NCBI GenBank assembly: GCA_036172245.1
Contig: JAYWIR010000024.1
Location: 124,001 to 188,000, forward strand
From: Raillietiella orientalis
Lineage: Eukaryota
DNA length: 64,000 nt
Direction of reading: 5' to 3'
Below are positions 1 to 58,390 of this stretch, one piece after another. Under the pieces are notes generated by a model. It was not told the origin of the DNA and searched no databases. It was given only the letters and a program-made list of their open reading frames with translations. Every line of letters starts with the position of its first letter. The first letter of the stretch is position 1. The position numbers were made by a program, and so were the translations under genes.

Positions 1-963
1 ATCCCCACATGGAGGATCGACCCCGAGAACTGGGAGTGCATCGCGAGTTTCGAGTCCCATTCGCAGGATGGCGCTGGTTGGCCCACGGACTTCGGGTGCG
101 GCGGCATTGGTTGACACCCGGTCACACCGGAGCATTTATTTAGAAAATAAGCATCCACGTCTGTGATACTGCCACGTGACTTATGGATACGAAAAAGAAC
201 CTTCAGGGATCTGGCACGCAGACCAGCAGGGTTCGCCTCGGCAGCACAGGGGAGGGGGAGACAAACAAAAAGAAAAAAAATGAAGTCCATAACTGGGGCA
301 GGGGGGGGGGAGGTTCGGCAAGGGATCACTGTGTGCTGGAGGGCGCCCTCTGCATCCTTCTAATAATGCCTGCAAGTTCCTGTTTTATGGTTCCCAGAAG
401 GGGCCATCTTGACGCTGTCCTCATGAAGAGGACAGCAGAATAGATGGCGTCCCTGTCGGGAGTATGATGGGTCCCGCCGCGTAGGCAGCAAAGTGCTGCT
501 AGGGATGAGGCCGGCAGAGGGAGTCACACAGGAAGAGGTGCTTTACAACGTCTCTGGCGTTGCCACCGGGGGTTCCAAGGATTGCGGCAAAGCGTCCCCG
601 AAGGGGTCGGAGGTCAGCACAGTCCCCTAGGAGGTTCTGGAATGATTCCCGCTCCCCGCACCTTGCACAGTTTGGGTCCACACCCCTCAGTGTCCACAGA
701 TGCCGGCGGGCGTTACACGGGAGGCCCCAGTGCAGCAGCATCAATGCCGACTCCTGCCACTCTAAGGGGAAGGTGCGGAGGCACTGGTGCAAACCGGATG
801 CCTCCGTTGACCGGTCTGGATTGTAAGTTGACCCTCCGGGTTCCTTCCAAGAATCAAGGAGCCAGTTCCCGTCAGGGTTTTCCTCCCAAGCGTAAGAGGT
901 AAGGACTCCTTCCTCCGGAGTTTCCTGGATTCATAGGGCTTTGGGGTTGCCCCCTCCTAACTT
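1..963 (+). mobile_element. SINE-like host repeat, copy 1 (1-94 and 789-963; head lies outside the window), interrupted by element A copy 1
   Basis: 1-94 aligns with the reverse complement of ~49195-49285, and 789-963 with the reverse complement of ~48023-48495 (lacking ~290 bp present in copy 2). Both copies end at the same point (CCTAACTT). Confidence 0.55.
112..771 (-). mobile_element. Element A copy 1: short L1/Tx1-like LINE 3' fragment (ORF2 C-terminal zinc finger + 3'UTR)
   Basis: Minus-strand translation LEWQESALMLLHWGLPCNARRHLW...CARCGERESFQNLLGDC (zf-RVT-like), T-rich 3'UTR, terminal AATAAA+hairpin at 115-140. Flanking direct repeats GGTGCGGCGGCATTGGT (95-111) and GGTGCGGAGGCACTGGT (772-788). 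Confidence 0.85.
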
Positions 964-1882
964 CAAAAGTTCTGCGCAACTGCACCCTCGGATGGAATAG
1001 ACACCGACGTGAAAACCGACGACTGCTCGAAGTGGATTTCTCTCTCTCTCTCTTTTTTTTTAATCTCAAGCATGATCCCTTCGTCTACTGCAGCTCCGTT
1101 CAGAGAATTCTGCCAGGTTATACACGGACGCACGCGCGATCTTGTTTGCAGTTCCTCATTCGGAAAATTTCGGCGCAGCTTCCCAAATATGACTGAATTT
1201 TTCAAAGAGGCTACTCCTCTGCGGGAATTATTCCATGCTCTGAAAATTACCAGGTGCTTTTCGAGCGCTTAGGAAGTCAGCATTTACTTTCTCTAATCGT
1301 CCTCGCGGTCCGCATTATGACCTCACATTTGAAATTTTGTCATGCACTGGACAGAGTCCATGTACCATCCGATGTAGGATGGTAATTCCAAGGTTCCAAT
1401 ACACCAGTTTACTACAATGGATGAGATTTACCTGCTTCTGTATGTATTCGTAGGAAATGGGTTCGTGGGTATTGAAAATTTCGGTTCCATCTTTTGAAAA
1501 TCCAGTACATGGAACATCAATGAGGGTGCACTGATTCTTAAGGAAGGTGCGTCGATTGATCCCTGATCATCTCCGCACCTTTGTTGCAGCTTTAGAAACA
1601 TCCCGGAGAATTTCTAGGAAATTTACCGACGCAGCACTGAGCGTGAGTGCCGATTATGCGAACGCACAGCAGCACGGAGTAATTACCGACGGCAGCGAAT
1701 TTTTGATTCTGCACACGATTTGACCGTTGAAGTTTCCAGGAGTTACGGGTTGACGGAGTTATCAGTATTGGAAGGCAAAGGGTTTTGCCGCTTTTGCTTC
1801 CCAGACACCTGTTTCCACCAGGACTTGCATTTCAGAACGAATCTTTCGATCCGAGGTCACGACCTCCTCGGAATTCGGAGGT

Positions 1883-3206
1883 TGCCACCCGGGTACGCCG
1901 GGACGTTTATCAAAACTTTCTTTTACGTGGTATAAGGCCCCACTAACGGCCAACACAACACCGGTCCTGCCGGGACGCCGGGACGCAGCCCGGCGTGACT
2001 CTCCTCGGCAGTGGAAGGGGATGGGAGAGAAAACAAAAAGAAAAATAAAAACATAAGGAAAACAAAAAGAGTTTGGAAGGGTGGGAAGGAATCACAGACC
2101 ACCGAGAGGAGGGTCCATCCTTTGCAGGATGCCCTCGAGGTCTTTCTGCATACTACCCAGCTAGGGCCATCAGGAAGCACACAGCATACGGGATGACGTC
2201 CCTCACGTTGTGGTGTTCGTCCTTGGCCTCACTCCAAGTCGCCACGATGCCAAGGATGCAGCAAAGTGCTGTCGGGACTGCGGCTGGCTGCAGGACGTCC
2301 CGCACGAAGAGAAGCCGGAAAACGTCTCTGGGGAGGCTGCCAACCGGTATCCCCAGGGTAGTCCCAAAACGTTCCCAGAGGGGTCGGAGGGCAGCACAGT
2401 CAGCTATCAGGTGGGGGAGGGATTCCCGCTCCCCGCACCTGGCACATTCAGGCTTTACTTTCCCCCGCGTCCAGTGGAAGCGACGCGCGTTGCAGGGTAG
2501 TCCCCAATGCAACAGGAGAAGCGCTGTCTCTTGCCACTTCAGGGGGAGAAACCTGGATCCATTCAAGATTGGGGACCACTTCAGTTCATCCGTCGGGATT
2601 CCGAGCAGCTTGCCCCATCTTGTTAGTCCTCGCGGCTGGACACTCGTAGCCGTGGCGTCCACCAGCTGTCCCATGGTCCAGCCGCTGATCAACGTCTGTC
2701 GTCCTGTGATGCGGCAGGAGACTTGCCACTTCGGCGTCCGGGTGCTGTGAAGCGCCCTCCTCAGAAAGGGCAGCGCCTTAGCCTGGCAGGTCGTCTCTGC
2801 CCACGTGCTCTTAGTGGGACACTCTAGTATGTGCCGCAGGGTGCGGCCGCGTATTTACATCTCGTGGCTTCTCTGGTTGATTACCGCCCACGTGCCAATG
2901 GTCTCCTACAACCAGGCGGAGGAATTGGCGGGGCTGCAAACCATCCAGCCGTTTTCCTTAGCCAGGGTGGCCATGCGTCCAAGGAGAAGGCCGCATCTTC
3001 GGATCTTCCAGCCAAAGCACAAGATAAGACGCGAGTCCTTGCGTCCTAGAGACACGGTTGGCGAGGAGGCGGGCCGGAACGCACCAAGGGGTGCTCCACA
3101 ACTTCGCTGCGATGGCCATGGTGCGCCATCGCAGCTGTATTTCCATCCGCTCCAGCGTCAAGAGGCTGAGACCGCTGTCCCGACGCGGAGCTCATAACAT
3201 CTTCAG
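1883..3206 (-). mobile_element. Element B: 5'-truncated L1/Tx1-like LINE (post-RT region, zinc finger, 3'UTR)
   Basis: Exact 14-bp TSD CGGAATTCGGAGGT at 1869-1882 and 3207-3220. ORF 2153-2692 contains WGLPCNARRFHW...CARCGERESLPHLIADC. RDSGLSLLTL near 3160-3185 resembles the post-RT GGLG motif. Ends with GATAAA+hairpin (1886-1911). Confidence 0.9.
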
Positions 3207-6094
3207 CGGAATTCGGAGGTGAAAGAGTAGCACGTTCAATCTTAAACAGTGAAATCGTGCTTTCAGCCCAAATACTTAACTTGGGAATGATAGGGCACTC
3301 CGCTGCTCTTCGCATCCGAAATGGACGGATGGAGTTTTGACTACACAACACTGTGTTCAGTGTTGCTCTGCTGCGAGATTATCACCAGCGTGTGAACTTG
3401 CCTTGTGGCATTCTTTGCTCGTGGCACGACGCGAGGATTCTCAAAGTGTCCTGTGTGAATGCCGGTGGGTAACAGTGGCAAACTTCCCACATTAAACTCA
3501 TGAAGATAAACGAATTTCACTGACCCTTGTAACGAGCCGCATATTCTCCCGACATGGAACTTCTTCGCGAAGTCGTGTAGCACCATAATCATGAAGGTGC
3601 AAAAGTGCAGCAGGTACCGAGGGTGCTGACGGCGTTCTTGTATTCCCGATTCGTGAATTCAACATGCCCTGCACACACGCTTGTCAACAACCACCGCACC
3701 TTTAAAGCTGTCGTACCTTTTCGAGCACGATTTGGGACCGTCCTGTCACTCGATTCTTAGTACTTTGCCTTTTCCTGCTGTTTCCCACGTTCATGTCGAC
3801 CGATCCGCAGGCAGTGACCCGAGTCATCCCTAATCCGTTGAGTTGCACGCGTAGAGCATCTGCTCTTACTCGGGAAATTCGCATCCGAGGTCTTCGAAGA
3901 ATAATCTGCCAACTCTCAATACGAACGGCGGGATGTCTGCCTTACTGAGAATTTGTCTTCTCTTTTTGGCTTTTTGCCGAGACCCGGTTTGAAACGGAGG
4001 CGTGCTGCCCCAAGTGTCGCTTATCACCTCAGGCCGGGCATGGCTTCCTGAAAAGCAATCTCGTCACGCTCGGGGGACGTTCAGAGAGGTCAGCAGATGT
4101 CCGGTTTATCAGTCTGGACACTGTCTGCTCACACGATCCGGTCTTTCGGCACTCGGCAAGTAGTAGTCCTGGAGCCTGGAGCAGAGTCTGCTTGGGTCCA
4201 TCAGCGAAAGCCCTCGAGTGCTCGATCGAAATCCTCATCATCGCCTCGTCCAGAGCTCCAGACCGGCGAAGCCAACCTACCGTCGATGCCTACTTGATAC
4301 AGGAAGATATACTCGGATGCGCCTCGTTTCCGGCCAGAACAGCAGGAATGTTCTGTCGGTCATTTTGGAGCTAGCAAATGCAACAATCCAAGTCAATCTG
4401 TCTCTTTGAGCTCTGGAGATTCACTCTCACCATAATTATGACACAGAAACGGTCTTTGGCGGTCGTTCCTCCTCCTCTATTCTTCGCTGTGCTCAAGTTG
4501 CTTGGCGGGCAGTCTACAAAAGGGTTCGTTTCTGTAACCCCGAGGAAGACGTGCCTGCCATGTAACAGGTCCCGGCATTCTTCTTACGGCTTTGAGTTTT
4601 ACGAGTTCTGGTACCACCATCCGTACAGAGTGGAAGAGAGTCAATCTTCCGTGAGGATTCGTCTGGTCAAGACCACGGTTCCTCAACAGCCTTCTTGGAT
4701 AGTCAAAGAATCAGCAAATCGGGAACGGAAATCAATGTTGCTTTGCCAACTTCCTCTCAAGAGCTTCGTCGCTGCACTCCTCCTCCCTTTCCCTCCAGAG
4801 TTCACGAAAGAGGTGTGACGTTGGAAAGCGGACCTCACCGTCGTGACTCAAGCTTCGACAGCTGGAGGAATGTTTATCGCCCTTCTTAATATTTGATTGG
4901 AACTCTAAGGATTTGCGCCAATTTTTTTTTTATTTATTTATGGATGAACTGCGAACATATTGCGGAAGCCCTGCCGATATCAGACCGCATTTGCTTGTCA
5001 TCCAATGTGGGCGTTCAACAAATGGCTCTTGAAATCTCGCTAATGAGGCACATTCTTTTGCTTATCTCGAGAAAGACTCCACCCTCCTCTCGTCCGTACG
5101 CATCCTTCGTTTCGAACGTGTCATTTTCCCATCTTCTGAGAAATGCACGTTCGAAATGCAAATACGGAAATCTGAGTGAACCGAAAAACGTAAAGAGGGG
5201 CGTCATGCGTTTTCCGAACAGCGATGAACAAATATACGATGGAAGAAGGAAAAAATCACCTACTGAACTTTAATACTACCAGTCTTGAGAAATCGGTATT
5301 GTAGATCCCTTCGCTTATTATGAGTAGAGGTTCTGAAACCTCATGCTATTAAGTGACGTCGTTGCAATACCTATCTGGGAAGAGTCTGAGAATCTCCATA
5401 TGTGGACCATTCTAAAAATAACCGAATTAACTTTCCATCTTTTGAAAGTGTATCACGTCTGCTCATCTAAGGGCACATCAGTATTGCCAGTATCACTCGG
5501 TACGCTGCACAATTACAGCCTTGCGCACGGGCAGTATCATAGGCGAGGAAGGCGACTGAGCCGTGATTATTGCTAGTTGAAAACATTACAGCAAGCATCT
5601 CAAATTGCGCGTTTACATATCACGGCTGGTGTTAACCAGCTAGAAAGAAAATTTCAAACGAAATTACCAGTTATTATGATTATATCATTAGCATAGAAAT
5701 GCAACTGGCAATTTCCTTTGAAATTATATCCATCATTATTCTATACATCAGCATTATTATGATTTCACATTTACATTTGTCTATGTCATTGTGATTGCTA
5801 TCTTCACCATCGTTTATTATTTTGGCGTTTTCGTTTCCGTTATCATTATTGCAAAATGGCCAGATTTTTTTCGAAATGCAAGGACTTCAGATTTCCACAT
5901 GAAACGCAGCTATCTCGTTTCAGGAGGAAGGCGTGGAGTCGATGACAAGCTGTCAAGGTTACCGGAGGTCGAAATCTTCAGAGCGGATAGCGGGAACACG
6001 CAGAGTCCACAGTGGCTATTACGATTCCAGAACCATTTTGAAAGAACTTTCCGCTAACATGTTTTTCGTCGTGACGCGTGTGCCTTACCTGTAG

Positions 6095-6265
6095 ACGGAT
6101 CTGCTTCATCGTGAGATACCTTGCCACTCCGGTCTATGTACCGGCCGTGGCAAGTTCTGAGCGCGTGGGGCAAACCAAGTGTTTCACCACACTAGAACAT
6201 TTGTGTGCACTTTTATTGTTATTATTTTTGATAATAAATGTCCCGGCAAATCCGGGTGAAAAAAG
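6095..6265 (+). mobile_element. Short LINE 3'-end-only insertion (structured 3'UTR + AATAAA hairpin)
   Basis: Nested stem 6120-6154, GTGG/CCAC hairpin 6165-6190, AATAAATGTCCCGGCAAATCCGGGTG at 6233-6258 then A6. Possible TSD CCTGTAG (6088-6094 / 6266-6272). Confidence 0.6.
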
Positions 6266-6411: not shown

Positions 6412-6906
6412 AAGGTGCACAACAAAATGGGGTGAATAACTGAATGATCGTCGAAACAGAAGCGAACGCAGAGACAGTATCTCCATCACTCGGAGATTCA
6501 TGAGGTATCATCGATGACGGTCTTAGACATTGGTTCCATCTTCAGATGATTTGAGACTACTATCACGGGAATGTGAAATTTGATCCAGCACGCCTCCATT
6601 TGGACGAAATTGGATATTCCCCTCTCCCCTCACCCCGAGGGACCTTGTTATGGGGCATCACGAGAAATCACTCAAATAATTCGTTTTCTGACCGACTTTC
6701 CCGCACACCACGATCATCTGCAGCTCGCTCAGCGTTTTTTCCTTCCGTGCTGGTTTCCTGATTATCTGGATTTCACGCGGATCGCTCTTGAGTAGCCTTT
6801 TGAAGACCATCCAATCCTGGATTTCGCTGCCTGAGATGGTGAGGAATCAAAGAGTAGATGCCTCCTTTTTGCTCGCAGCTTCCAGCCCAGGCAGTCAAAG
6901 ATTGCT

Positions 6907-7084
6907 GTTTTTTTTTTTTTGTCCCCCCTTACCCCTGCTGCCGTGGTGGACCGTACAGGTCTGCGAACCGGTGACCCGGCAGGCTCCAGGTTGTTTCTTC
7001 GGGCGTGGCTGGATCGCTGGTCCAGCCACAGCGCGTTTTTAAAGTTTGTTTTTTAAATAAACGCCTCGGCGACCCGGGTGAAAA
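6907..7084 (+). mobile_element. 178-bp LINE 3'UTR-only insertion related to elements A/B
   Basis: Exact 12-bp TSD TCAAAGATTGCT (6895-6906 / 7085-7096). T tract, CTGCCG...CGGCAG stem, terminal AATAAACGCCTCGGCGACCCGGGTG + A4. Confidence 0.85.
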
Positions 7085-10000
7085 TCAAAGATTGCTCGGT
7101 GCCCGCTTGCATCTTTAGGTCTTGACCTTCACTTCCTACGCTGACAAAGTCAGAGCGAAAAATTCCTTTTCTAAGCCTCCGACTTTTCCGTCGAGGGACA
7201 GTCGATGAAGATGTAGTATGCACAAAAGTCTCATTCGCGACCCTCTATCCTTTCTTCCGGTAGGCTGTGCCAACTGGAACCAGTATCTGGAACAAACGAC
7301 GCCTGGACAGGCAAAGTTCACTTCCACTGTGCATCAGTGAGTTTTTGTGGCTGGTCAAGACGGACGCCTCGATCCTTGGCTCTAATTTCGAGACAGCACG
7401 AGGAAGCGTCGAAGGAACAAGACGGGCAGACGCACAGGAACCGCTCCTCTCGGGAGGCTGAGATATCTCGTCCATTGTTACTGGATGTTGATCTCGATGT
7501 CCGTCCACCTTTCATCTTCCCTCCTTGGCTTTGCTTGCTTGCGCGTCCAGCTCTCGGTCGAGTTGGAAGCACACCCGCGTTTTGACGTGCTCTTCGCTCG
7601 TTGCTATGGGAAACGAGCGTCCCGTTCACGAATTTATGGACGTTGCGGCTTTGTCGGTCGGCCCGTGAAACGCATGGCTCGCCTGCTTTCCCCCCGTGCT
7701 CTTCCTTTTTCCTCTTTCGGTGATTCCGGGCTAAAGCACTTGAATTGCCGTTTCCTGGCAGTTCAAGTGCTGCAGTTTCACTTGACGCGGACTGACGCGA
7801 GGAACCTCTCGGAGACGCCCTGCAGAGAATGAAAAATCAGTCTTCAAAAAACTCTGATACTTCGCGCAGCAATGGAGACGTCTCACGTTGCCAAGCTCGC
7901 ACATCCCCCTCCCCCCCTCCCTTCCCTACCGCACAACAATGGAAATCTCCTGACAGTTTCGATAGGAGCGGTCGGATCCATTGTTGCACACCCATTGTTG
8001 TCGCTACTCAGGAAGCTGAGCAACCGGAATCCGCGCCGCAAGGGAAAGGCCTTCGGAAAAAACGCCTGGGCCACAGGAGATTTGACCGCAAACCGCGATG
8101 CGGCCAGGCGGGCGAATTCGCGTCCCCACTGCGTCCTAGCCCCCCGAGTACTTTCGATCGAATGGGCAAACATGGGATAGCAGGGTTGGGCTGCTTTCCG
8201 CTTTCCTCTTGCAGCGGCGGCGGCCTATGCCGGCCTTTGCTCTTTTCGTCCGGACCGAGCGAAACGTCAGGAGGTCACTGGTTCGTGAAATGCGGGGGAT
8301 CGATGCACCTCGAGAAAGAACCAGACATTTGCGTTTTCCTGATGACATTAGATTTGTCTGGAGCTTATCGCACCATCTGCATTTACCACACGCATCACGT
8401 TGATAATCATTTATAAAAACGAGGGACACGCCCAAAAAATGCATGTTAGTTCAGTGAGCTCTAAGGAAAGTGAGCTTTCTTTCCGGAGGAGGGTTCGTTT
8501 TCCAGGTAAACCCTGCGTTTGACCGAGCCCACTTGTTCTCACACTGTATTCACTCTCGATACCTCGCTCTCGTAAAGATCAGCCTGTGGCTTCCGTTATG
8601 CCTTTCTAAAGTGTGTCAGTGAATCACGTTAAGGCATGGAAGCCCAAACCTTGTTGCCGTTCTCTCGTTAGATTACCGCTTCGGGAGGCAGTGGTGACCC
8701 TCGGAGCACCGGGTCTCGCGTCTTGCACTGCTCCACACTTGCTGAAAACCGCTCTTGGGGGAAAACGAGCAGAGATTCTTTCTTTTTTTTCCAATTGAAC
8801 GGGATCGCAGCGTGCAGAAGTGGCCGTCTGCCTCCTCCTATGTGTTGTCCATGCACTGGGCATAAGAATGCCGGACGAAGAGTGCGTAGAAGGACCCAGA
8901 ATGCCTGTAGCAGGAGAACCTATAGCAGGAAAAGCGAAGGTTCGGATTCCGTCAGCGTGGTCTTCTGCAAGACAAGAGGAGGAGGAGGAAGGGAAAGCGA
9001 CTGCTCTTGCGGGCACGCGCCTTTCGCCTTAGTTCTTTCGCTGCTTTCTTAGCTGTATCCAAGAGGAATCCGGAGACCCACGACGGTGCCTTTCCTTGCC
9101 CGCCTTGCTTCCTCACGGCTGCTGACGTTCGGCAGTGCCAGGATCTGTACGAAGCCTCCTTTCGTTCATTCTGTGGATTCTGAGCCACCTTCTTCCTTAT
9201 CCTCTCTAAGGAGGGGGAGGGGGGCGGCAAGTCTGTCGCAAGCATGTTCAGAAACCTGGCTCGTTCCATTCGTCCACCCGCGTTGGCGACCTGGAGTTAC
9301 CTCACGGGACAGCTAGCGTAGGGGGGGCGCGAATACCCGTGAAGCGGGCCGACACCGAGAGATGAACCGAGAGTTTACGGTCCACCCCGCTAGATGAGGC
9401 TGAGGCTGCGGGTGTGCACTGTTTAGACGGATGCCCCGTTGACTGTAGCAGTCAGGGACTGGGAGTGGGCCCTTCGGCGAACCCACCTCACGAGTGGTCC
9501 TTGGGTGCGTGATGTAGTGAGGCCTTATGAGACCCCATGTAGGGTTGTTGCAGGGCCACTATGGGGTGGACGACCGCTCTTGCTTACTTAGCGTACCTCT
9601 CCCCCCCCTCTCAAGGTCACCTCAGCGGCGTGCTTCTTTCGCCTCCCTTCTTCCTTCCCAAGCTGAAGACACGCGTCCTTGTCTCCCCCCCCCCCCCCCC
9701 AACGCACCTAGAGAACTTGAAGCTGCGAGATGCACGCGGCGGCGCCCGGAGGGAAAAAAACTTTTCGCCCTCCTCCCCGCAGCCACCTTCGGGAAATTTC
9801 TCGTCCTTCGAGCGGAATCGAAGTCTCTGGCTGCCTCCGAGAACCCCTCAGGCACTCGTAGTGGTTTTTCCATTGAGCCCTCTTCCCCCAGGCGGCATAA
9901 AACTTGCTGGAGGCGCGCGCTGCACCCGCTTCGCTGGCGCCTGAGCGGGGTGCCTGCTGCTCGAGACTCCTGGCACCCCGAAATAAAAGGGATGAAGTCC

Positions 10001-11532: not shown

Positions 11533-14500
11533 ATGCTGCGCTCCTGCTGCACCACCTGCTACATCTTCGTTGCTTGCCTCGTTGGAGCTCACGCTGGACT
11601 GGAGCGGGCAGACAACCCGCCCATCATACTGAGTACTGAGTTTCACCCCTTCGTCTACAGGCCGCACGCGCGCGCACTGCGACGGCGGCCGCGACAAAAA
11701 CGGTGCCGTCGACGAAGCTGACGGCAGCCGGCTCCCTTCCTTCCTCGCTGGAGCCCGACCCCAGGTGGTCTTTCGGTCTGACGGCAATGAAACGAATGCG
11801 CGCCGAGTCGCGCGCTCCAAGCGACCACTGCTTGAAACACCCGCGCGCTTTCGCCGGGGACGTTTCTCTGCGCGTGTGCAAAGCTCACAGGGGAGTTCCG
11901 CATCCCATGGAATCCACACCGGGCGGGTTTCGCACCCACAGCGCAGTCACGCTGTCCCGAGGAAGGAGTAAAAGGGAGAGGAGGGGTAAGGAAATGGAGA
12001 TTTGGTGGTGGCATGCAGGAAGGGTCACCGTATCTCATATGCCCCCCCCCCTCCCGGAGGGTTCGCGAGCTCGACGAGGACGATTCCATCCCTGGTCTGC
12101 TGGGCCGTTTCTCCGCCTCTTGCAGCAACGAGGTTGCCGAAGCAACGGCCTCGCGGCTACGCTGCCCTCCTGCTTGCACGTGACTCGGCTCTGCAAACGT
12201 AGAGCAGCCATGGGGGCGCGGAGGGCCTTCTTGGGAGGCCCTCCGCGCTCGTTGCGGAGTCAGTTGGCTCCTTCCTGTAGAAGTCCAGGGTCCCCTTTTT
12301 GCGGCCCAGCGCGGGAAGAGAGCAGTCGCGTGCACCGCCTACCATCCGACGGAGGAGCGCGGAACCGTCGACACGCCCAGAAACGGTGGTAGCAGAGGAT
12401 GTCCAAGGAGCCCCGCCCGCCGATGAGCCGCTTCCCTTCGCACGGATGCTCGGAGTCGGCCCGCTGACTCCGCGACCACCCACCAAGGAGTTTCCGCCCC
12501 CACAGAGCCGCGCCTGCCCCTGCAACTGCCGCGCACGGTTCCGAACCGGCCTCCGAGTGCTCCGAGTTCGCGCTTCCCGAGCTCGGGCGGAAGTGCCTCC
12601 TGCAAGTGTGCGCCCAACCTGCCATGCGTAAACGTTCTGTGCGCGTGTGGGCGGACTGACAGGTCGTGGCGCGTCCAGGCTGCGCGGTGAGCGCCGGCAC
12701 TGCCGCCCCTCGCGCGATTCGGACGTGACGTCGTTGTAACCGGTTCACGGTGAATACGAACGGGCACCGAGAAAATTTCGGGAACACGTGCTTAGAGAAA
12801 CATACGAGCGAGGGAAAAAAAGTCCCTCCGGGATTTCCGTGCTCGGTTCCGGCCGCAAACCTGTCGCCGCCTTCGGCGGCGCTGCCGTATCCTGGCGCGC
12901 AGCGTCGGGCGGGTTTCTCCGGGCAGCGACAAGCGGCAGTTGCAGGGGCAGCACTGCCATCTGCCGTTGTCCCTGACACTACGATGTGGCTGAAGGGGGG
13001 TTGCACCTCTGCAGATTCGCACGTTCGACCGCTGCACGCATGCGAGCTGGGGCCACAACCCAGTACCCCCGTCCCACCGTGCTCCGCGAGGGGTCGCGCC
13101 ACTGATGGCCTGCGGTCGCCCCGAGAGATGCCGAGAGCTCCTCAGCACCCTCTCTGCGCGGACCCTTAGTCTTCGGGTGTCCCGAGCTCTGTTTGCAGCC
13201 GACGGCCGCTCGCCCCACGGGGGCCGCCACTGCGCGTGCGCCGCCTGCTCAACTCTGGTGCGGACGCGGACGAGCGCCCCCTTCCCGCATTCATTCCCGG
13301 AGGAAGATTTCGCGCCCACCGTGCGCCCCCCTTACGTTTGCGTTTTCTCGTACTAAGTGTACGTTCGCGCGAAAGCAGTCGAGTCTCTCCAGGGTGGACC
13401 CGGTGCTGGCGATCAGTTTGACCGTCGAGAGGTTTCTTTTCCGTTGTCCGTTCGCATTTCGGCGTCGGCGCAACGCGCATTCCCCTTCTGGCATGATCGT
13501 GAATTCTCGGACGAAGGTCTGCCGGGCAGCAGCGCTATTTTTTAAATTCTCGAGAGTTTCCCGAGAGACGGGCTTGGAGGTTAACGCTCCTTGCATGGAG
13601 CCGATGGCTACGTCACATGAGATCGCAGCCATGGCGTTTGCCCACTCTTTCGCAACGAGAAATCGAAGCTTCCCTCAAGGTCGCGCCAGCAAGCAGACGA
13701 ACCTGGGGAGGGGCAAAAAAGTGCAATCTGTCGGCAACGACTTATCAGCGACTTGTACAGTTCGCCAGTACCGAATGTAATCATCCGGGCCGGGGTATGT
13801 ACAAGCGGAATGTTTCATCGCCGTTGATAGCTCAGTGATGATGCCGCAGGCATCAGTGGAAAGCGGGTGAAGGAATAGGGGAAACGATAGAGGTGGTGGG
13901 CGGACTCGAGCCTATTATTTACGCGCACGAAGCCCTGTAGGAGGACCTTTGCAGCAGCAGCAAAGCACTTCCGCAAGAAAATCCAGAAAGAATTCCCTTT
14001 TTTTTCCTTTCTACCGTTTTCGATCGATCCGGATGACGCGCCCCAGCATTGTTGAAAAAATTGGCGCCGATCGCGGCACCCGTGCTGCCAGCTGCCGAGG
14101 GAGCTTCGAAGCGCGGAAAGGAGGGTCCGCGCCGCCCTTCGCATGATGGGGCAGCGCGGACCCGCCCTGTCCTCCGGCGAATGAGGTCTCGCCCACGCAA
14201 AGTCGTCGCCCCCGAGGGGCGAGCGGCCGTCTGCTCGCGGGTGCCGTCGGCTGCAAACAGAGCTCGGGACACCCGAAGACTAAGGGTCCGCGCAGAGAGG
14301 GTGCTGAGGAGCTCTCGGCATCTCTCGGAGCGACCGCAGGTCATCAGTGGCGCGACCCCTCGCGCAGCACGGTGGGGCGGGGGTACTGGGTTGTGGCCCC
14401 AGCTCGCATGCGTGCAGCGGTCGAGCGTGCGAACCTTCAGAGGTGTTACCCCCTTCAGCCACATCGCAGTGTCAGAGACGGCGGCTGATGACGGAAAACC

Positions 14501-45084: not shown

Positions 45085-46440
<1,356 letters not shown>

Positions 46441-48022
46441 CTGACTTCTTACCTTGTGTCTGATCTCGCTGTCTAATGCATGAAACCTCTTATTGAGACT
46501 GTGCTTGCTTGAGTCTTTGAACATTTATAGCTACAGTCATAGATTTATCTACTTTGAAGTGAAAATATTTTCGTTTACAAGTGTTATGAGATAAATGCAT
46601 TGTGTCTTCATGGTCAGTTATTGCAGTACATTGTGGATACAAGTGGAATATCTCAAAAGTGCACTGCTATATCTACAGGCCACTTGGTGTATCGTACAAA
46701 AAAATATCCATTCATTTGCTGCATATCCAACGAAATCAGGTTCTCCGTACATCATTTATTGTTGAGGGGATATGCTTCTGTAAATTGTACAATGGTTTAA
46801 TGTGGTTTTAGATTCAGTTTGTGTGTATTAAAAATAAAGTAGCAGAAAATCAAAGCTTTAGACCTAGAAAATAATAAAGTGCTATTGGTATTAATGGAAA
46901 TAAGCATCTAATAAATCGTTATGCAAAGCAGCGATCATAAAAGATGGGTTCTCAGTAGCTAAAGGTTTACAACAGGCTTCATCCTCACATGAAAGATGAA
47001 CTTGGAGCAATTCAGGAAGCAAAGAATACTTGACGCCCAATGTTGATTTTGCAGGTTAGATGCCATGCAGTTGAGATAGGAGGCAAATTCTCATCTGTGG
47101 CAGGTGGAGATTCCCAAGCGAAAAATCTGCTGTCGAAGCACACGACAACCCTGGACAAACATTCGCCAATTTTTCTCATTTTTGCATTCGCTAGTCGCTT
47201 CTCCTGCGATGTCTGTCACTCCTCCCTTTGTAGAATTGCTGTACGTGACTTGAGATCCGGTTTGTCTTGTGTCTCTCGGCTGCAGACGTTTGGATAACTG
47301 TGCCTTTCCCGCAGTGGATTTCAATACGCTTTCGTGCTGAGCAGAACTGTGGGAAACGGGCATCAGAAGGGGATTGGCGCCGCCCAAACCCTTTTGTGCT
47401 CGGGGCTGTTCAGCCCGAGCGTTTCAGTTACAGCTGCACAAGAAGCATCGAGTTCAGTTCTTTGCTGTGAATTCCAGAACCATTCCGACCTATCGCAGCA
47501 CTTGTCTTTCGGTCCCCAGCGGGATAGCCGACCAACGATGCACCCTGATTTTCAGGCTTGTTAGAGCTTTCTCGGCGGCTGATGTACGAATAGTAAAGCA
47601 TGCGGGCGACTTCCCTCATGTCTTCGCCGCTTTAGCAGAGAAACGAGAATGCTAACAACACACGAACAGTGAGGTGATAATGCTTTTCCAGGAAATATGA
47701 CGAGCCGCATGTACTCTGCTCGAATACGTGCATTTTCCAAAACGCAGGGGTTTTTAAAGAAACAAAAAAAAATCAAACCTTCACAGGGACGAGCTCAGAG
47801 AAAGAAAGAGTCGTGTGGAAAAAAAAGGCATAGCGCACTAAGATTGCTACCTACGAGAAATTAACTCGTAAAAGGCTGCATCTTGAAAGCATCACAGGGT
47901 GAGCGCCGTTGGCTGAAACTGTCACGAATTTTTCCGGGCCAAATTAAACGTAGCATCCTGTCTTCCTCGTGGTTTACTTTCAGAACCATCTGCCTACTAA
48001 GGAAGTTCAATGGGATTTCTTC

Positions 48023-49337
48023 AAGTTAGGGGGTGATCCCGGGAGGGGACCACCCTATGAATCCAGGAAGGACTCTGGAGGAAGGAGTTCGTTCTTCTCA
48101 CGCTTGGGAGGGGAACCCCCTTCCTTATTCTCTCCGGAGACACCCCTCCGGTTTGTGGCAGCCGCTCCATTCTTTCGTTTCTCCTCCGAAGGGAACCCGG
48201 AAAAGATACTCTCTTGGAATTTCTTCTCCGGAGGAAACCCGCACGGGAACCGCTCCTTGTTTCCTCCTCTGAAGAGAACCCCAAAGGGACGCTTCTGAAT
48301 TTGCTCTGAAGGGTCGCTCCCCCCGCTTCACATTCTGGAGAGACATCTATCCACCAACTCCATGGTACGAGATGGGAGGATCACCCCACTTGCACAACCA
48401 GAAGGAAACCCCGAAAGGTTCCTTGATTCCTGGAAGGACCCCAGAGGGTCAACTTCCAATCCTGGACACTCATAGTAGGCATCCGGTTTTCGGCTTCCAC
48501 CAATGCCGCACCCTCCCCTTAAAGTGGCTGGAGTCGGCGTTGATGCTGTTGCAGTGGGACCTCCCATTCAGCACCCGCTGGCATCTGTGGACACAGGGTG
48601 TGGGGATCCAAACTGTGCGAGGTGCGGGGAGCGAGAATCTCTGCCGCACCTCCTAGTGGACTGTGTTGCCCTCCTCCCCCTTTGGGGATGCTTTGCCGCG
48701 ACCCTTGGAACCCCCGGCGTCAACACCAGAGACGTTCTGAAGAGCCTCTTCCTGCGCGGCGCCCTCACTCCGGCCTCATCCCTAGCAGCACTTTGCTGCC
48801 TACGCGGCGGGACCCATCATACTCCCGACAGGGACGCCATCTATTCTGCTGTCCTCTTCATGAGGACAGCGTCAAGATGGCCTCATCTGGGAACCATAAA
48901 ACAGGAACTTGCCAGCATTATTACAAGGGTGCGGAGGGCGCCCTCCAGCACACAGTGATCCCTTGCCGAACCCCCCTCTGCCCCAGTTTTGGACTTCATT
49001 TATTTTCTTTTTGTTTGTCTCCCCTTCCCCTGTGCTGCCGAGGCGAACCCTGCTGGTCTGCGTGCCAGATCCCTGAAGGTTCCTTCTCGTAGTTGTAAGT
49101 AATGTGGCAGTATCAAATGCCCTGCCGCAGACGTGGATGTTTATTTTCTAAATAAATGCTCCGGCGTGACCGGGTGTCCACCAGTGCCGCACCCGAAGTC
49201 CGTGGGCCAACCAGGGTCATCTTGCAGTGGGAACTCGAAGCAGCGATGCACCCATCCGTCTCGTCGACCTTTCCCCTGGTGGGATTCGAGCTCGCAAGGC
49301 TCGGTGCCACGTGCGGGAGACCGGCAGCCACACGGCC
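48023..49337 (-). mobile_element. SINE-like host repeat, copy 2 (tRNA-like head at 49337), interrupted by element A copy 2
   Basis: Minus strand begins GGCCGTG-TGGCTGCCGGT (A-box-like at tRNA position 8), with GAGCTCGAATCCCAC (degenerate B box/T arm) at ~49279-49293. Homologous to window positions 1-94 and 789-963. Confidence 0.5.
48514..49176 (+). mobile_element. Element A copy 2: short L1/Tx1-like LINE 3' fragment
   Basis: CARCGERESLPHLLVDC zinc finger, frameshifted upstream. 18-bp TSD TCCACCA(A/G)TGCCGCACCC at 48496-48513 and 49177-49194. Terminal AATAAA hairpin 49151-49176. Inverted homologue of 112-771. Confidence 0.88.
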
Positions 49338-52329
49338 GCCGGCGCGGACGGTTTGCTAAATTCCAAGGAAGCTGTAGAATCATAAATGCGCTGAATGATG
49401 GCATAGATGGGCAGTCGTTTAAACCAATAGTCTGCCCTATAAGTTTTGCTTATTTAATCGAAGCTTCCGTCTTAACCTGGACTTTTAAGCGATTTTGCAA
49501 CCAGTCAGATTTTACGTCCCGGCATTTATTTCAAGAGCAGGTGTAAGAAACTGTGAAGAATGAGGTCATATGGGGTGGATGGCAGAGGATTCATTCTTAC
49601 AGGCTAGATATTTCTGACGGTGGAAACTACGAAGCAATTCAGTTGCAAGTTATTGAAGATCGATACGGATCTCCTTCAGCAAATTTTGCGAGATGAATTG
49701 CTTACACGACTGATGGAATTTTGTGCACAGCAAGGGCGTTTGGTTCAAACGGTGGTATGGGTATAGGAACTGCACGCGATGCAGAATTCTTTGAAAACCG
49801 TGCACTTCGTGAATGGGAACACTGGGCAAAAACGGACGCCATAAACTGCCAACATTAGAAATCACTTGCTATTCTTGCATGATTGCTACGCCAAAGTAAA
49901 CGAACAACAACGAAAAAAAAAAGAACGCTTTTTTGAATCGGTCGCATGTGTGGTGGTGAACTTTGGATCAAGCCAAAGAAACTCGGTAGTCAAAGGAAGC
50001 TGAGCACTGCGAGAACCAGAAGCTTCGACTGGAACCAAAGGTGGAGGTGCACGACGGTCTGAAGTGTTGCACGCAGGCTTCTTCCTCGTGTGGTCCTTCC
50101 ATGGCGCGGAACACACCACTTTCATCCTGGGAGAAATGGCGACGTCTCTCGTGGCAAAGTGTGCTCGTGGCAAAATCTTCCTAACCGTCCAAGTAGACGA
50201 AAGTTTCACAGAAAGGATCTACTGGAACTTTTCAATAGAAAATGAAGACAACGAGCTTTTGTTATTCTGAACTCTGTACGACGGCATGTTTTATTATATA
50301 GAAAGGAAAGCCCTCAAGGTAGCAGTTTTACACTTTCAGAAGGCCACGACGCGGAGGCTTGAAAGACAATGTAAAGTATCTGGCTGAGTGGCAGACTTAT
50401 TCCAGGTTTATAGAAATGAAACCACCTCAGTTTCTATGGAAAGCTCCCATCAAGAGCATGCATCTTGCTGTAGTTAAAAGGTTCTGAATTCCCATTGGTA
50501 CTCTTACGCTACTTTTTTTTTGGGTAACAGGCAGGGAAGCATGAGATGAAAACTGCCACTCCGAGCAAGAATGCATTTGCAGAGAACAGTTTGGGAACCG
50601 CTGCCATGGTACGTTTCCGAGTATCCTCAGGCAGTTGCTTCGTCGTAGCGCTAGAATCAGCTCGCAGGAAATCAATCTAGAAACGGCGAAGTCCCTCTTG
50701 CTTTGGAAATGTCATCCGAGCGGTTCTCGAACAGGAGCTCGACATCTGAACCACCTCTCTAATCTTTGGCTTTCTCCTGGCTTTATCAGTTCGACTATTA
50801 TTGCGAAAATGGTGAGGGCGTGCAAAAGCACAGCAACACCGCGTGAAAGTCTCCAAGAGAGGAGCACAACTGCGCGTTTCCAAGCGACTCACTGATGGAG
50901 CCCAGGAATGCTCCTTGCCATTCCTCGAAGTCAGAAACGGTGGAAGCGGCCATTTTCTGGAAACGCCGGCAAGGGGCGACCCTTTTCCCGATCGATCCAA
51001 AGATGGGAAAAGCGGCGCTGGGACGGCAGTCACAACGGATAAGGAAGCATCGCAAATAACATAATTTGTTGCATATAGGGTCCATTCCAGGAAGACATCT
51101 GGAGAGATTAGGCAAGTGGACAAGGAGGAAAGAAGTGTGCGTAGCAAAATCAGTATAAACGGTTTTTGTTTGCTCTTGGACAGCGCGAAGAATAGGAAGG
51201 AAAAAAAAAAAAATAATGCTGATTTGACGCGACTTATTCCCCATAAAAAAAATTCTTAAACGTGCACAGCTCTGATATATATGTATTTTTTTTCCGGTGT
51301 GTATGCGTGCGTTACAAAGCGAGAAAGTTCCAAGCACCCATAGAATTTCCTATACAAAGAAGGTACAATCGACCGCATGGATATCTGCGAAATGGTAAAA
51401 TAAATCGGGAATACTGAAGTCCGTACACATCGACACGTGAGGATCAGGTCAGGAGTCACTAGCACGAAAGGTGGGAGCGTGCAACCCACCAGCTACGCGC
51501 CCCAAATGCACGGCTTCCACGTCCACTGCTCACGCTGTTCGATGCGGACGCGAGTAGGGCGCAACGAGAACTTCCGTTTCCGGCACAGCTGTTCTGCTTG
51601 TGTTTGGATTTGCTCTTCGTGTACTGAACGCACTGTGCTGTCCATTAAATTCGGATCCGCGAACGGAAACGAGCGGGGCTATATAGTCTCCTTCGTCTCT
51701 GCACATCCAGTTTTCTTTACCGACCTCCGGTGCATTAGAACTGCTCTTACGATCCACACCGAAGGATGGGTACACAAGCGAACCGCCCATCTATCTGACA
51801 TTTGCATCAGCCCGTTTTTGTGATAACATTTAGAAAAATGGGGGTCGTGGGGAGTACGTACGCATGGAAGGAAGCGTGCGCTTTTGTACGAAATGAGTTC
51901 CCTTCGAATCCTCTTGGCTCCTTCAAAATGCTTAAGGAGGATAGGAGTTTTCCGTGTGTGTGTGTGTGTTTAATTTGATCTGACCACTCCGTTTTTGTGC
52001 GGGCCCAGTCACTGCCGTTTTTCCAGCACGGGACCCAGACTCCTCGACGACCCCATCTTTCGTGGGTGCGGATCCGAGGATAGGGACTGCCCCACTTCCT
52101 CGGGTCGCACATCCACCTCAAACTCGTGATCAAAACGAGCAAGGCGAGTACACCAAAAGGGTGTACACAGAATGTGTCTGCAGCTCCAGTTAAGAAGTGG
52201 GGCATGGAACTTCCTTTCCTCTCCCTCAAGTTTAGGTCCGTAAGCAAAAGTGAGAAAAGTACATGGCGAAGAAAACCGAAAGGCGCCCACGCCATGCCAG
52301 AAAGCAAAGTAAAAATGGAGTTTGATTTA

Positions 52330-53264: not shown

Positions 53265-55040
53265 CCGGTAAAAGTGCACGTGTTAAATGCGCTCATGGAG
53301 GCATGCGGGAACACGGGATTTCGCCATAGAGGGCCCCATTTTTTGAGGGGGAAGGCATAGGGCAAGATGCTTTCCAGCTTACTTCATGGCTTCCAATCGA
53401 CCAACTCGTGAATTAAGGGAAAGAGAAATCTCCCCCGACAGCAGTGGCTGGACTCTTGCGGCAAGAATCCCTAAGACTCATCCCTAATCTCCGCGTGAGC
53501 AATAAACACGATCAAGGACATGCATGACGAGCTGGTAGCACTGCTCAAGAGGGCCATCTTGAAACACAGAGTGGTTCTGGGGGGTCCGCCTCCAGAAGAG
53601 TTCCGGCGCTGGAGGTTCATGCAGCCACGAAGCGTCACGACGGGCTGGTGAATAAGATCAGGAGGATGGCGGCAGGCCGATGGGAGCAGCGCGTCCCCAG
53701 TCAGCTCATCCCAGAGTCCGTAAGCCAGAAAGGCATCGGTGTGACCCAAGGTACCCTGCGAGGAATGTAGCCACGTGTTCACCTGCCCGACGCTGAGCCG
53801 GGACTGGGCCAAGCTGAAGGAGGTGACAGGCCTGCAGAGGATGGACAAGACGGAGATCCTGGCAGGGATGTTTGAAGGGAACGGCAACGTTCCCCGATAC
53901 AACCCAACGGTCCGCATCACCATCGCCCTCTTTATCACGAGCATCGTGATGAGAAGGACAAAAATGCGGACCGGAATAAACAGTATGCCAGCTGTGGAAA
54001 TCCTCAGAGGATCAGTGAAAAGGGAAATTGGGATCAGAAGCTGTGGACGCATCCCCACTTTGACGTACTGTCACATCCTGCGAAGGATTCAGGAACATTG
54101 TCAAGTGAGTGAATTCCCCACGCAAACTCAGTGACTGGATGCCCCAAGACCAACTCCGAAAGTGAAAAAGAGTGACAACCAGTGACACTGACCAACGCAT
54201 GTATGCATGAATGAAAGTAGGAAATAAATTCACCCCACTGCAAGTCGGACTGGGAAAAGAGAAATGCAGCCACATGGGCCATATGCCGGCGACGACCTGC
54301 ACAACACCCAAGAGCTGCCATTGGTGACCTGAGAGACGACTGCCGGCGCTTCATCGCGTGGATGGAATTCCAGGACCACGCCCTTCCGTACCGGCCCCAG
54401 CTCGGACCAACGTCACCCCGGTCAGAGAAGTCTGGTAGATCATGCAACACCGCCGGTGGCGCAGCGCGGAGCGACTGAGCTCATTCCTAGCCATCCGCCT
54501 ACGTCCCCCTCGGAAGAGAACAACGCTACGCCCGCATCCACTGCAGGAGGAGGAGATCGATGGGCTGGAGCGCTCCAACGCCAGCCTGAGGGACGAGGCC
54601 CAGAAAGAATAAGCCCTGCAGCAGACTCCTCCAATGAGGAAAACGTCCGCGCATATTTCTCAGACGACGACTGGACCTGAGCCGGTCAGACCAGGGCCAG
54701 GGGCGGCACGCACGAGGGGAGGTGGGAGAACCGCAGGGCGTTCAAGATACCCCTGCGAAAAGAGGAGAGGAAGGTCCCAGAAACACAAACATCCCCACAG
54801 GCACCAGGTGGTACAGTTCCTGTCGTTGCTGCAGACAGGAACGACGCTGTGCTTGTCCCTTGGAGCGAAGAACGAACGAAAGCGGAGCTCGGTGGTGTTT
54901 CTATGGCGACGCTGCATTGTTAGTTTGTTCGATCGATTTGCTGTCTAAAGTGCGTTCATCCCACCGCGAGTCGTTTGTCCTACTGACCCCTGCACATTCG
55001 TTTTTTTGTAAAATAAACACCCCGGTGCACCTGGGTGCAA
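53265..55040 (+). mobile_element. Host H1: degraded Tx1-like ORF1 (zinc knuckle) followed directly by 3'UTR; candidate HAL1-like ORF1-only element, interrupted by C1
   Basis: Rejoined across the C1 TSD: VKVHVLNALME...FPAYFMASNR...KCSHMGHMPATTC...KSCHW (broken CCHC knuckles), low-complexity tail to TGA at 54680, then AATAAA hairpin at 55012-55037. No RT is visible. Confidence 0.45.
53430..54255 (+). mobile_element. Element C1: 5'-truncated L1/Tx1-like LINE 3' end
   Basis: 10-bp TSD AAAGAGAAAT (53420-53429 / 54256-54265). ORF ...HVFTCP...EILAGMFEGNGNVPRYNPTVRITIALFITSIV is homologous to C2. Ends AATAAATTCACCCCAC...GGACTGGGA. Confidence 0.8.
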
Positions 55041-55099
55041 AGAGCGAGTCTCCCCCTCCCCCTCCCCCTTAAAAAAAGGAAAGTGTGAATAGTTTTTTT

Positions 55100-55273
55100 T
55101 AAAAAAAAAAAAATAATTGTTTATTTTTTCCCGCTCCCCTCCGTGGTGTTGTGAACCTCCTGGTCGACCTCTCCCTTTTTGGATTGCCGGACTTGCTGGG
55201 ACGTGAAGTCCTACTGACTCCTGTATGTTTATTTTTTTTGCAAAATAAACGTCTAGGCGCATCCAGGTGAAAA
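55100..55273 (+). mobile_element. Short 3'-end fragment related to the H1 3' end
   Basis: Shares GTCCTACTGACYCCTGYA, a T tract and AATAAAC with 54977-55018. Terminal motif at 55244-55269, then AAAA. Confidence 0.6.
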
Positions 55274-55689: not shown

Positions 55690-58390
55690 TGTGTTTGAGT
55701 GCATGAAACGAAAATTAATCCACCTCACTGCAATGAGGACAAGGGGAAAGTCATCACACTCAATGTGACCTGCACCTTCGAAAAGCCAGCCAAGGTCTTT
55801 GGAAGACGCCAGGAAGTGCAAGCAGAGCGATCACTGTGCCCTGGACATCCACCTCTGTGCCTGTCCGAAGACGAGGTCCCACATAGGCGAGCCGGCCCCA
55901 CTCTGGGGAGAAATTGCTCTCCGGCAATGTCCATCGCCATCGCCCGATGTCTTCTGAAGGTAACGGATAGTTCACCGCCAGCAGCGCCCCAGCCGTGCCA
56001 TACGATAAGATGACACCGAAGAAAATGTCCGAGAAAACCCGTTCAAGACGGCGGAGACCTCAGGCAGTGAGTGAAACCATCCGGATGCTGCTGCGCATTC
56101 CCTGCTTGCTTAGCAAAAACACAACCGAGGACGAACTCCTAGAAAAGCAAGCATCAGAGTTTCCCCAAGTCCCACTAGGGGTGGGGTGAATTTATTTTCT
56201 TTTACATTCATACTACAATTTCATTCATACAAGTTACACAGGAAAACTTCACTACACTTCACGAGTATTCTCTTGAAGTCTATTTCTTTGGGTCTCTGAA
56301 AGTTCACTGCACTTTTTCACCTGGGCATCGTTTGAGCCCAGATGCTGCCTTCAATCCTTTTCAGGATGTGACGGTATTTCCAGGCCTGCACTCTTCCACA
56401 GTTCCTGACTCCTTCTGGAAAAGCCCTTTAAGGATGTCCATCGAATATACGGCAGTCCTGGTGGTCTTCATCTTTCACCACCGCACAAGAATGGCGGTGA
56501 TGAAGAGGGCGATGGTCACTCTTACCATTGGGTTATAGCATGGAACAGTTCCATTTCCTTGGAACATCCCTGCCAAGACCTCCATGGTCGAGGCATTTGC
56601 AGCCCGATGACCCTTTTCAGGGTATATCACTCGGTTTGCAATGTGGGGCAGATCAAAACATGCCGTCTTGTATCGATGCCACCACATGTCTGCAGATTTC
56701 TTCTTCCCTTTTGCCCGTGAAAAACTTCATTCTGGATCCACTCAGGATGCCAACATGGTAAAACATAAGGAGGTTATCTTGAGCGTCCGGTGGTAGGTCA
56801 CTCCTCCAGGGCGCCGTTCCAATCGCTAGTGGATTAAATCCACTGCTGGCGTGGCGGTCGGCGGCTTCTTGGAGGGCACTGGTGTCTTTTTCTTCGACTA
56901 TTAGTCGGCGAACATTGATCTTGGTTACCCTGGACCACGCGAAGTCGGTATGGTTTTTCCACACTAAGTGGGTCCTATGGGTGAAACTGCCAGAGATGCT
57001 TTGGATGTAACGGAGCACCCTGGAATGGTGTAGGTATCATTGCCGTCTCCATGTCTCAGTGGCTTTCAAAGTAACTCTGGACCGCTGGCGTATCCAGCTC
57101 CTCGTGTCATCCTGCACGGGGAGCATCTACGGGATAACCAGGATGGATTCCTCCTGCCAGAGTTCTTTGCTTTTAGGGATGATCTTGATTTGTTCTTTCC
57201 TTATTAGTTGCTGTTTTCTCCGCCATGCTGGGTCAGTGGTGGACCATTCGCCCAATCTGCCGAGCAGCGCAGTCATCAGGCCTCTCGAGTTGTTCACCAA
57301 CAGCGAGTACGCCCTGTGCGCTGCGTACGGTCAGTCGTCCCAGTTGGAAGACATGTCCAGGATTTGTCGCACCTCCATGATGTCCACGGCGTGTGCAGGA
57401 GACTTCATCCCGGTCCCATCTTCTTCCTTAGGGCGACATAGTGGTTTGAGGCGTACTCTCGGTCGGTATCCTCCCCAAAGGGTCTTTCTCTGAAGCTTTT
57501 CCACCTCTCTCTTGGTATCTTTCAACATTCTGTAGAAGGCTGCTCCAAAGAGTATCTTTGGAAGGAGTACTCCATTCCAAAGATTAGCCCTCTTCTTCAT
57601 GTTAAAGTCCGAACTGGTATACTTCGCTCCTTCTGCTGCTGCTTTCCCCAGGATTTCTTTCCACAGTAATTGGGATGCTGGTGCTTCGCCAATGTGGACA
57701 CCCAGGTACTAAATTCGATCCACCGTACGGAATCCTTCCCTCGTGAGTGTAGAGAGGTCCAGGATTCCGACGGGCAGAAGCTGGCTTTTTGGGGCATTGA
57801 TTCTTAAGCCCATTCCTTGTTCCATTAGCTCCACCACATGCAGAAACCCTCGCTGATCTCTCCTCTTTTAGGAAGAAGAGAAGACCATCTGCGTAGGCTA
57901 GATGGGTGAAGAGCAAGCATCAGAGAGGGACCGTAAATGCGGAGCGCGCCAAGAAGAGGAACAGGGCCAGGCTTCTTGGCTGAGCCTGATCAGGCCACGT
58001 CAGCAAGTATTGACCGAGGGAACGGAGGAAGTGAGCAGACAGGATCCAACGACTGCAGGCGAGGCCAGGGGCAGAGCAAGAACGTCCTGACGGGCTGCCA
58101 GCCCAGCCCACGAACTCTTGATGTCCCCTCGAGCTGCGAGGAAGTGCTGGAAGCGAGCCGTCGAACCAGCAGAGGCTGGAGATGTGCTGACGACCAGCCT
58201 GTCCAATAGGGCGCTGCTACGCGGGGAAAAAAAATATCCTGGGGCATATACGCTGGGAGCGTCGGATAGGTGACCTCCTGTGGTGAAGGGGACCCTCCAG
58301 CACCACACAATCTTTTCTTTGTTTTCACCTCTTTTTTTCTCCTTTTTTTCAACACCTCCGTAACGAAGAAAGCGTGAAGGATAGGAAGAT
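55690..58390 (+). mobile_element. Host H2: degraded retroelement (ORF1-like knuckle, T-rich 3' tract), interrupted by C2
   Basis: RKCKQSDHCALD knuckle-like remnant near 55810. Reading frame is continuous across the C2 TSD (ELLEKQASE|RDRKCGARQEEE). CCCTCCAGCAC + T tract at ~58293-58350 resembles the end of element A. Confidence 0.4.
56160..57911 (-). mobile_element. Element C2: 5'-truncated L1/Tx1-like LINE from the RT active-site motif to the 3' end, degenerate
   Basis: Exact 14-bp TSD AGCAAGCATCAGAG (56146-56159 / 57912-57925). HLAYADG (YADD remnant), KRANLWNGVLLPKILF...LWGG...LCRPKEEDGTG, EVLAGMFQGNGTVPCYNP. Several frameshifts; same 3' end as C1. Confidence 0.9.

Follow-up and report, generated by a model that had tools for sequence, protein, structure and literature searches.

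The closest described counterparts of the elements analysed here are LINEs that end in a conserved 3' structure and LINEs that insert into other repeats. The zebrafish elements ZfL2-1 and ZfL2-2 carry a short 3' stem-loop across diverged families, with a common stem and a family-specific loop, and the accessible part of the same account describes the L2 ORF2 as recognizing the stem generally and the loop specifically (PMC4176376). Within the L1 clade, a monocot lineage (LINE1-1_ZM) keeps a 3' hairpin and L1-1_CR of Chlamydomonas shares its 3' end with a SINE; a conserved 3'-terminal sequence is found in both (PMC3472496). Tx1 families are APE-RT LINEs that prefer sites in repeats, and their targets, as given in the accessible text, include DNA transposons, LTR elements and snRNA genes; Tx1 inserts in Tx1D, Tx1-Mar in Mariner-N4_AMi, Keno in U2, and Tx1-8_Crp and Tx1-4_AMi each have their preference among LTR elements (PMC4494074). 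Nesting of LINE copies in LINE copies is described for Zepp of Coccomyxa, whose nested copies, in the part of the report available, make up a single cluster on each chromosome (PMC3446292).

In the genome of Raillietiella orientalis about 1,900 copies of one L1-like family group stop exactly 4 bases past a short conserved hairpin and have no poly(A). Such a fixed hairpin end in place of poly(A) is unusual among L1-like elements and common in other LINE groups. The conservation of the 3'-terminal sequence (motif 1) across diverged families is that of stringent-type LINEs, whereas the 3' poly(A) tail of mammalian-type L1 is missing. L2 elements, which end in short tandem repeats, belong to another clade; in the elements described here AATAAA abuts the stem and the end is a fixed NN-AA. 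In the monocot L1 lineage the stem covaries and the loop is conserved, which is the reverse of motif 1, and L1-1_CR ends in poly(A), which motif-1 LINEs lack; both have SINE partners (PMC3472496), whereas no SINE partner or passenger with a motif tail was found among the 212 motif sites that we examined.

The targets differ as well. Here they are the ORFs of sister LINEs and a repeat with a tRNA-like head, kinds of target that the accessible text on Tx1 does not name (PMC4494074). Unlike Zepp, several families here hit other families, each at its distinct site, many copies are dispersed and motif-bearing copies are spread all along contig C1. The principle, both of a 3' stem-loop and of Tx1 elements that target transposable elements, is already known, and it is the variant in an L1/Tx1-type lineage that is new. 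The part of the literature that we searched yielded no account of this terminus or of LINE families that target the ORFs of their sisters.

Motif sites in the window

We analysed a stretch of 64,000 nt (the window). A pattern search placed seven motif sites at the coordinates and on the strands given by a first-pass annotation (Table 1), and there is no extra match in the window even when up to 2 substitutions are allowed. The motif gave no match in 200 simulations of the window (local second-order Markov).

Table 1. Sites carrying motif 1 or motif 2, and the target repeat of family C, by position in the window
Feature	Coordinates	Strand	Motif and tail	TSD and other evidence
5'-truncated L1/Tx1-type LINE, family C	111..771	-	motif 115-140; tail TCAA 111-114	TSD 15/17 matching; ORF2 C-terminus match at 783-532, 42% identity to P0001 (tblastn); duplicate of the 48514-49180 insertion
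5'-truncated LINE, family B	1882..3206	-	motif 1886-1911 with GATAAA; tail GCAA	exact 14-nt TSD at 1869-1882 and 3207-3220
3' fragment of another motif-ended LINE family	6122..6262 (5' limit approximate)	+	motif 6233-6258; tail AAAA	aligns to L129, L063 and L010, all with ORF2 matches upstream
5'-truncated LINE 3' UTR, 174 nt	6907..7084	+	motif 7056-7080 (4-nt loop variant); tail AAAA	exact 12-nt TSD at 6895-6906 and 7085-7096
Dispersed repeat with tRNA-like head, split by family C LINE	48017..49350	-		second copy at 1-939 (+)
5'-truncated LINE, family C	48514..49180	+	motif 49151-49176; tail TCCA	TSD 48496-48513 / 49177-49194, 17/18; antisense at family C preferred site
LINE, second lineage	53430..54256	+	motif 2 (AATAAA-TTCA-hairpin) 54223-54254	candidate 10-nt TSD 53420-53429
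Motif plus tail	55012..55041	+	tail CAAA	motif pattern search
Decayed LINE 3' end	55192..55273	+	motif 55244-55269; tail AAAA	aligns to L081 and L082; L082 has ORF2 upstream
LINE, second lineage	56160..57907	-	motif 2 at 56163-56196	18-nt TSD with 1 mismatch, 57908-57925; RT/thumb about 28% identical to P0001

The seven sites had been taken for seven different insertions, and this has to be corrected. The alignment of positions 36-863 with 49251-48417 (85%) crosses both junctions, and the insertions at 115 and 49151 have an identical 5' truncation point (the same ORF2 base) and an identical target site. They are a single insertion that was duplicated together with its flanks, so the window holds at most six independent events. 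A TSD fixes the end of the element at four of the seven sites (115, 1886, 7056 and 49151); at 6233, 55012 and 55244 a TSD was sought and none was found. ORF2 C-terminal homology lies directly upstream of three of the window sites. A Pfam search of the short decayed frames of the window found no LINE domain, and the elements were therefore assigned by tblastn to P0001, the ORF2 protein of a full-length copy.

Some of the motif-bearing copies had also been thought to be non-autonomous passengers. The copy at 7056 is instead a truncated LINE 3' UTR, and the family members to which the copies at 6233 and 55244 align have an ORF2 upstream. Judged by sequence, the short motif-bearing copies are 5'-truncated LINEs.

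The exact terminus and the LINEs that carry it

The terminus reads AATAAA-YRY-CCCGG-CNNNN-CCGGG-TG-NN-AA and is followed at once by the TSD; its layout is AATAAA, a 5-bp stem with a 5-nt loop, TG, NN and AA, with the loop and NN specific to each family. Two checks that the first-pass annotation had suggested both came out in its favour. In the genome-wide pattern search (210 Mb, 491 contigs) the AATAAA form gave 1,894 exact matches (959 + 935) and the reversed control none. Additionally, of 83 usable sites 27 have a TSD scoring at least 11 directly after the motif, compared with between 1 and 6 when seven control offsets were used (p = 6e-5 against the highest control). The offset of the TSD among these 27 sites was 4 (13 sites), 3 (5), 0 (4), 6 (3), 7 (1) or 8 (1), and in three of the four cases with offset 0 a single target holds two stacked elements. 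When copies were selected by their RT, the offset was 4 in 11 of the 12 that have a TSD. The element had been said to stop 0-4 nt after the hairpin without a long poly(A). An end close to the motif is borne out, but the loose range gives way to a fixed +4, as NNAA follows the motif in 1,580 of the 1,894 matches. The absence of a long poly(A) also stands, since NN plus six A follows in one match only.

The target lacks AA in front of the nick in every one of the 43 cases whose TSD starts at +5, which shows that the terminal AA belongs to the element; derivation of the AA from the target was accordingly rejected (0/43). A general microhomology between tail and target was likewise rejected, as it is seen for family C only. 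The apparent 0-nt end at 49151 arises because the family C tail (TCAA, as at 115) resembles the four target bases before the nick. A scan of metagenomes with a stricter pattern yielded nine loci, none with a significant ORF2 match, and these were treated as chance.

The full-length copy (L068) has a 1,203-aa ORF2 (P0001) behind an ORF1 of about 700 aa. P0001 contains the Pfam domains Exo_endo_phos (5.9e-16) and RVT_1 (1.2e-22), that is, an APE endonuclease and then the RT. A separate ORF1 with CCHC zinc knuckles is the type I criterion in the accessible part of PMC5203782, and CX2CX4HX4C (CCHC) knuckles were read by eye in the ORF1 of four related families. The elements are 61-5,900 nt long and often 5'-truncated, and their TSDs vary in length (11-17 nt in 38 of 43 copies).

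In fetched DNA a sense ORF2 match ends within 520 nt upstream of 172 of 212 unique motif sites, and 31 further sites align to such 3' UTRs, which links 203 of the 212 to LINEs; these sites are a sample from about 1,900 or more, and some of the ORF2 matches may belong to a host copy. The remaining nine, left unassigned, include window sites 6233, 55012 and 55244. Starting from the RT, we took 40 copies out of 134 RT matches (20 at 95-99% and 20 at 76-82% identity). The motif, with up to 3 substitutions, is at the expected distance in 37 of them, and in the other three further insertions interrupt the element. As the RT query was itself taken from a copy with the motif, this demonstrates near-universality no further than within the lineage.

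Sharing of the motif by diverged families, as originally claimed, is supported by the RT cores of motif-bearing families, which are mostly 62-81% identical in comparison with a reference copy, and by the sequence just upstream of the motif, which falls into 68 clusters among the 212 sites. A quick tree, made without a named Tx1 reference and including two rows that nesting may have made chimeric, groups the 17 motif-bearing rows in a single long-branched clade (SH-aLRT 100). The best database homologs of ORF2 are 21-33% identical and there is no named Tx1 reference among them. All elements of the tree that have motif 1 fall in this clade, so the sharing of motif 1 is by descent. The motif forms the 3' end of a single radiation of L1/Tx1-type LINEs, with placement in the Tx1 clade tentative. 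Dozens of RT copies are 90-99% identical to an intact ORF2; the motif-bearing lineage is young and high-copy.

The 3' UTRs of many loci and families also have in common a conserved GC-rich block (window 6925-6985), which precedes the motif by about 100-170 nt and gives 55 alignments of at least 48 nt. It is possibly a further structured element.

The predicted hairpin and its probable reading

RNAfold predicts the hairpin at six of the seven window sites (-7.7 to -10.3 kcal/mol), and the copy at 55244 barely folds (-1.2 kcal/mol). The label of terminator given to it in the first-pass annotation is a misnomer, as there is no U-run after the hairpin. Across copies AATAAA is near-invariant. Each stem column is at least 89% one base and changes mostly by transitions, loop columns 17-19 vary freely, and the variable columns coincide exactly with the predicted loop. 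The 14 family consensuses shown keep one stem, except for one two-member cluster with a mismatch; in family G the outer C7-G26 pair is broken. Compensatory changes in the stem, one of the points on which the annotation was to be judged, did not appear: there is none in the 14 family consensuses, and among the matches listed, read by eye, a compensating T21 is present in 6 of 63 G13>A copies and 8 of 100 canonical copies, which is background (Fisher p = 0.78). The G13>A pattern fits decay after insertion. G13 lies in a CpG and, besides the expected A, is replaced by T unusually often in decayed copies (30 of 100 among the matches listed, by eye). Folding often predicts a further, variable hairpin that precedes AATAAA by 20-50 nt (22 of 68 clusters reach z < -2, compared with 9 of 68 flank controls, p = 0.013).

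A second LINE lineage, with two copies in the window, ends in motif 2, which has the layout of motif 1 and a different hairpin sequence. Motif 2 has 103 matches genome-wide and none in the control. At one pair the bases alternate between C-G, G-C and U-A, and pairing is kept in 20 of 21 aligned copies, more than in any of 500 shuffles or any slid control; the alignment consists of 19 of 20 fetched loci and the two window copies, with L191 excluded because of its decay. Most of this covariation reflects a single inherited difference between two subfamilies. By analogy, the motif-2 hairpin lends indirect support to the folding of motif 1, for which the terminal hairpin is plausible but unproven as a real RNA fold.

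Taken together, the data suggest, with a probability that we would put at roughly 0.7, that the motif is a conserved 3'-terminal cis signal that works like the stem-loop of stringent LINEs, presumably by binding ORF2p. The RNA would fold into a 5-bp hairpin, ORF2p would bind this hairpin, and target-primed reverse transcription would start at a measured point, 4 nt past TG. Because of this measured start, any poly(A) or read-through RNA beyond +4 would be left uncopied. AATAAA, together with the U-rich tract that precedes it, would act as a poly(A) signal, with cleavage about 22-24 nt downstream and therefore at about the same point. The choice of target would be a separate step at the level of DNA, set by the endonuclease of each family.

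The near-invariant AATAAA and the U-rich tract before it would also be expected if the motif were a 3'-processing signal only, in which AATAAA and the hairpin set the cleavage site, and ORF2p, incapable of priming far into poly(A), copied the first one or two A's with no recognition of a hairpin. Cleavage and polyadenylation usually take place about 22-24 nt past AATAAA, which is the distance from AATAAA to the end of these elements. However, priming on poly(A) predicts A tails of variable length, and a run of six A is found just once in the 1,894 matches. Poly(A) sites, moreover, can do without a constant 20-nt sequence separating the signal from the cleavage point. We consider it quite unlikely that processing alone explains the motif. 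We would give much the same low weight to the idea that a protein reads the conserved 20-mer by its primary sequence, either on RNA or on DNA/cDNA, with its palindrome being incidental. Stem bases that are invariant and do not covary are consistent with such reading, but the positions free to vary are exactly those of the predicted loop, and the second lineage has another sequence with the same layout and one covarying pair. Although motif-1 elements form one clade, it is highly improbable that the motif is functionless and shared by recent descent, since the 26-mer was kept through a turnover of the flanking 3' UTR (68 clusters among 212 sites), or that it marks where a DNA transposon, Helitron or Penelope-type element ends, since upstream there is an APE-RT ORF2, 5' truncation and TSD length are variable, and Rfam finds no ribozyme in the window.

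A base-exact terminus free of poly(A), in a young lineage of high copy number, allows a direct test of how an L1-type ORF2p chooses its template and start point.

Target sites and cross-targeting

Several families have fixed insertion spots, which lie within one another or within one additional repeat. Family C uses one site in the dispersed repeat with a tRNA-like head (17 of 25 copies, with at least eight different truncation lengths), and the target repeat is found downstream at 20 of 30 loci with a TCAA tail. Other fixed sites are within ORF2 of sister families. Family A inserts at about codon 79 (antisense, 17 of 51), family B at codon 503 in the RT (antisense, 10 of 38, and about 40 of 100 among the genome matches listed, by eye), family E at codon 71 (antisense, 5 of 8) and family D at codon 170 (sense, 4 of 6). 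The fixed insertion codons in sister ORF2s are about 71, 79, 109, 170 and 503 (L059, L067, L125-L142, L193-L232 and others). The translation of the family G target resembles sister ORF1s by eye, so the ORF1 of sister families is probably a further fixed target. LINEs also stack head-to-tail at the regenerated target.

In the accessible part of PMC4494074, an element counts as target-specific when more than 20% of its flanks are in one repeat. Families A, B, C and E exceed this value at one site each, in a sample that is not random: it is enriched for young copies in LINE-dense contigs, and dispersed family A copies are mostly off-target.

Composite duplication as the sole cause of the shared targets was rejected. 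The hosts are less alike than the inserts (0.83 compared with 0.91 for family A, 0.76 compared with 0.92 for family B), the copies differ in length and in TSD, and each TSD matches its host's own variant. The on-target insertions are therefore repeated events, although some near-identical on-target pairs are duplicates, and for family B independence rests on four TSD-resolved copies. The targets of families A, D and E match other families better (17-20 of 20) than their own (12-16 of 20). Off-target sites of family A share with the on-target site a G at -6 and a C at -4 (9 of 12 each, three hot-spot sites having been dropped; p = 7e-4). These shared bases are upstream of the nick, which favours recognition of DNA by the endonuclease over pairing of read-through RNA.

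With their own target sites, the families offer endonucleases matched to targets, in which the evolution of specificity can be studied. It is possible, though in our view doubtful, that these families make up an animal guild of L1-type LINEs in which one shared 30-nt RNA handle replaces poly(A) priming and fixes with single-base precision where reverse transcription begins, and in which each endonuclease has evolved its own long address in the ORF1, endonuclease or RT coding sequence of a sister. Such elements would be hyperparasites that disable their competitors, they could mobilize each other in trans, and they would form a natural panel of site-specific, tail-free integrases on a common RNA module.

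The repeat targeted by family C is abundant and several hundred bases long, and the motif was not seen in the parts of it that were read. Its head is called tRNA-like on the basis of A/B-box-like segments read by eye at about 49270-49345, as ARAGORN at a relaxed score gave only noise on this repeat. Rfam found U4 snRNA alone in the window, as a match of 58.8 bits at 5517-5663 (+) with a degenerate 3' part. It is probably a pseudogene, and the repeat map has no LINE adjoining it. Exons of a Ras-family GTPase (Pfam Ras) are present at about 45990-46441 (+), and the coordinates 38247-40113 (+) and 22957-23860 belong to LCAT-family exons and a 0.9-kb stretch that is duplicated 16.8 kb upstream with 95.7% identity. 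Finally, there are 250-nt inverted repeats at 12958-13206 and 14243-14490, 94% identical and about 1 kb apart, which look like a TIR or foldback element.
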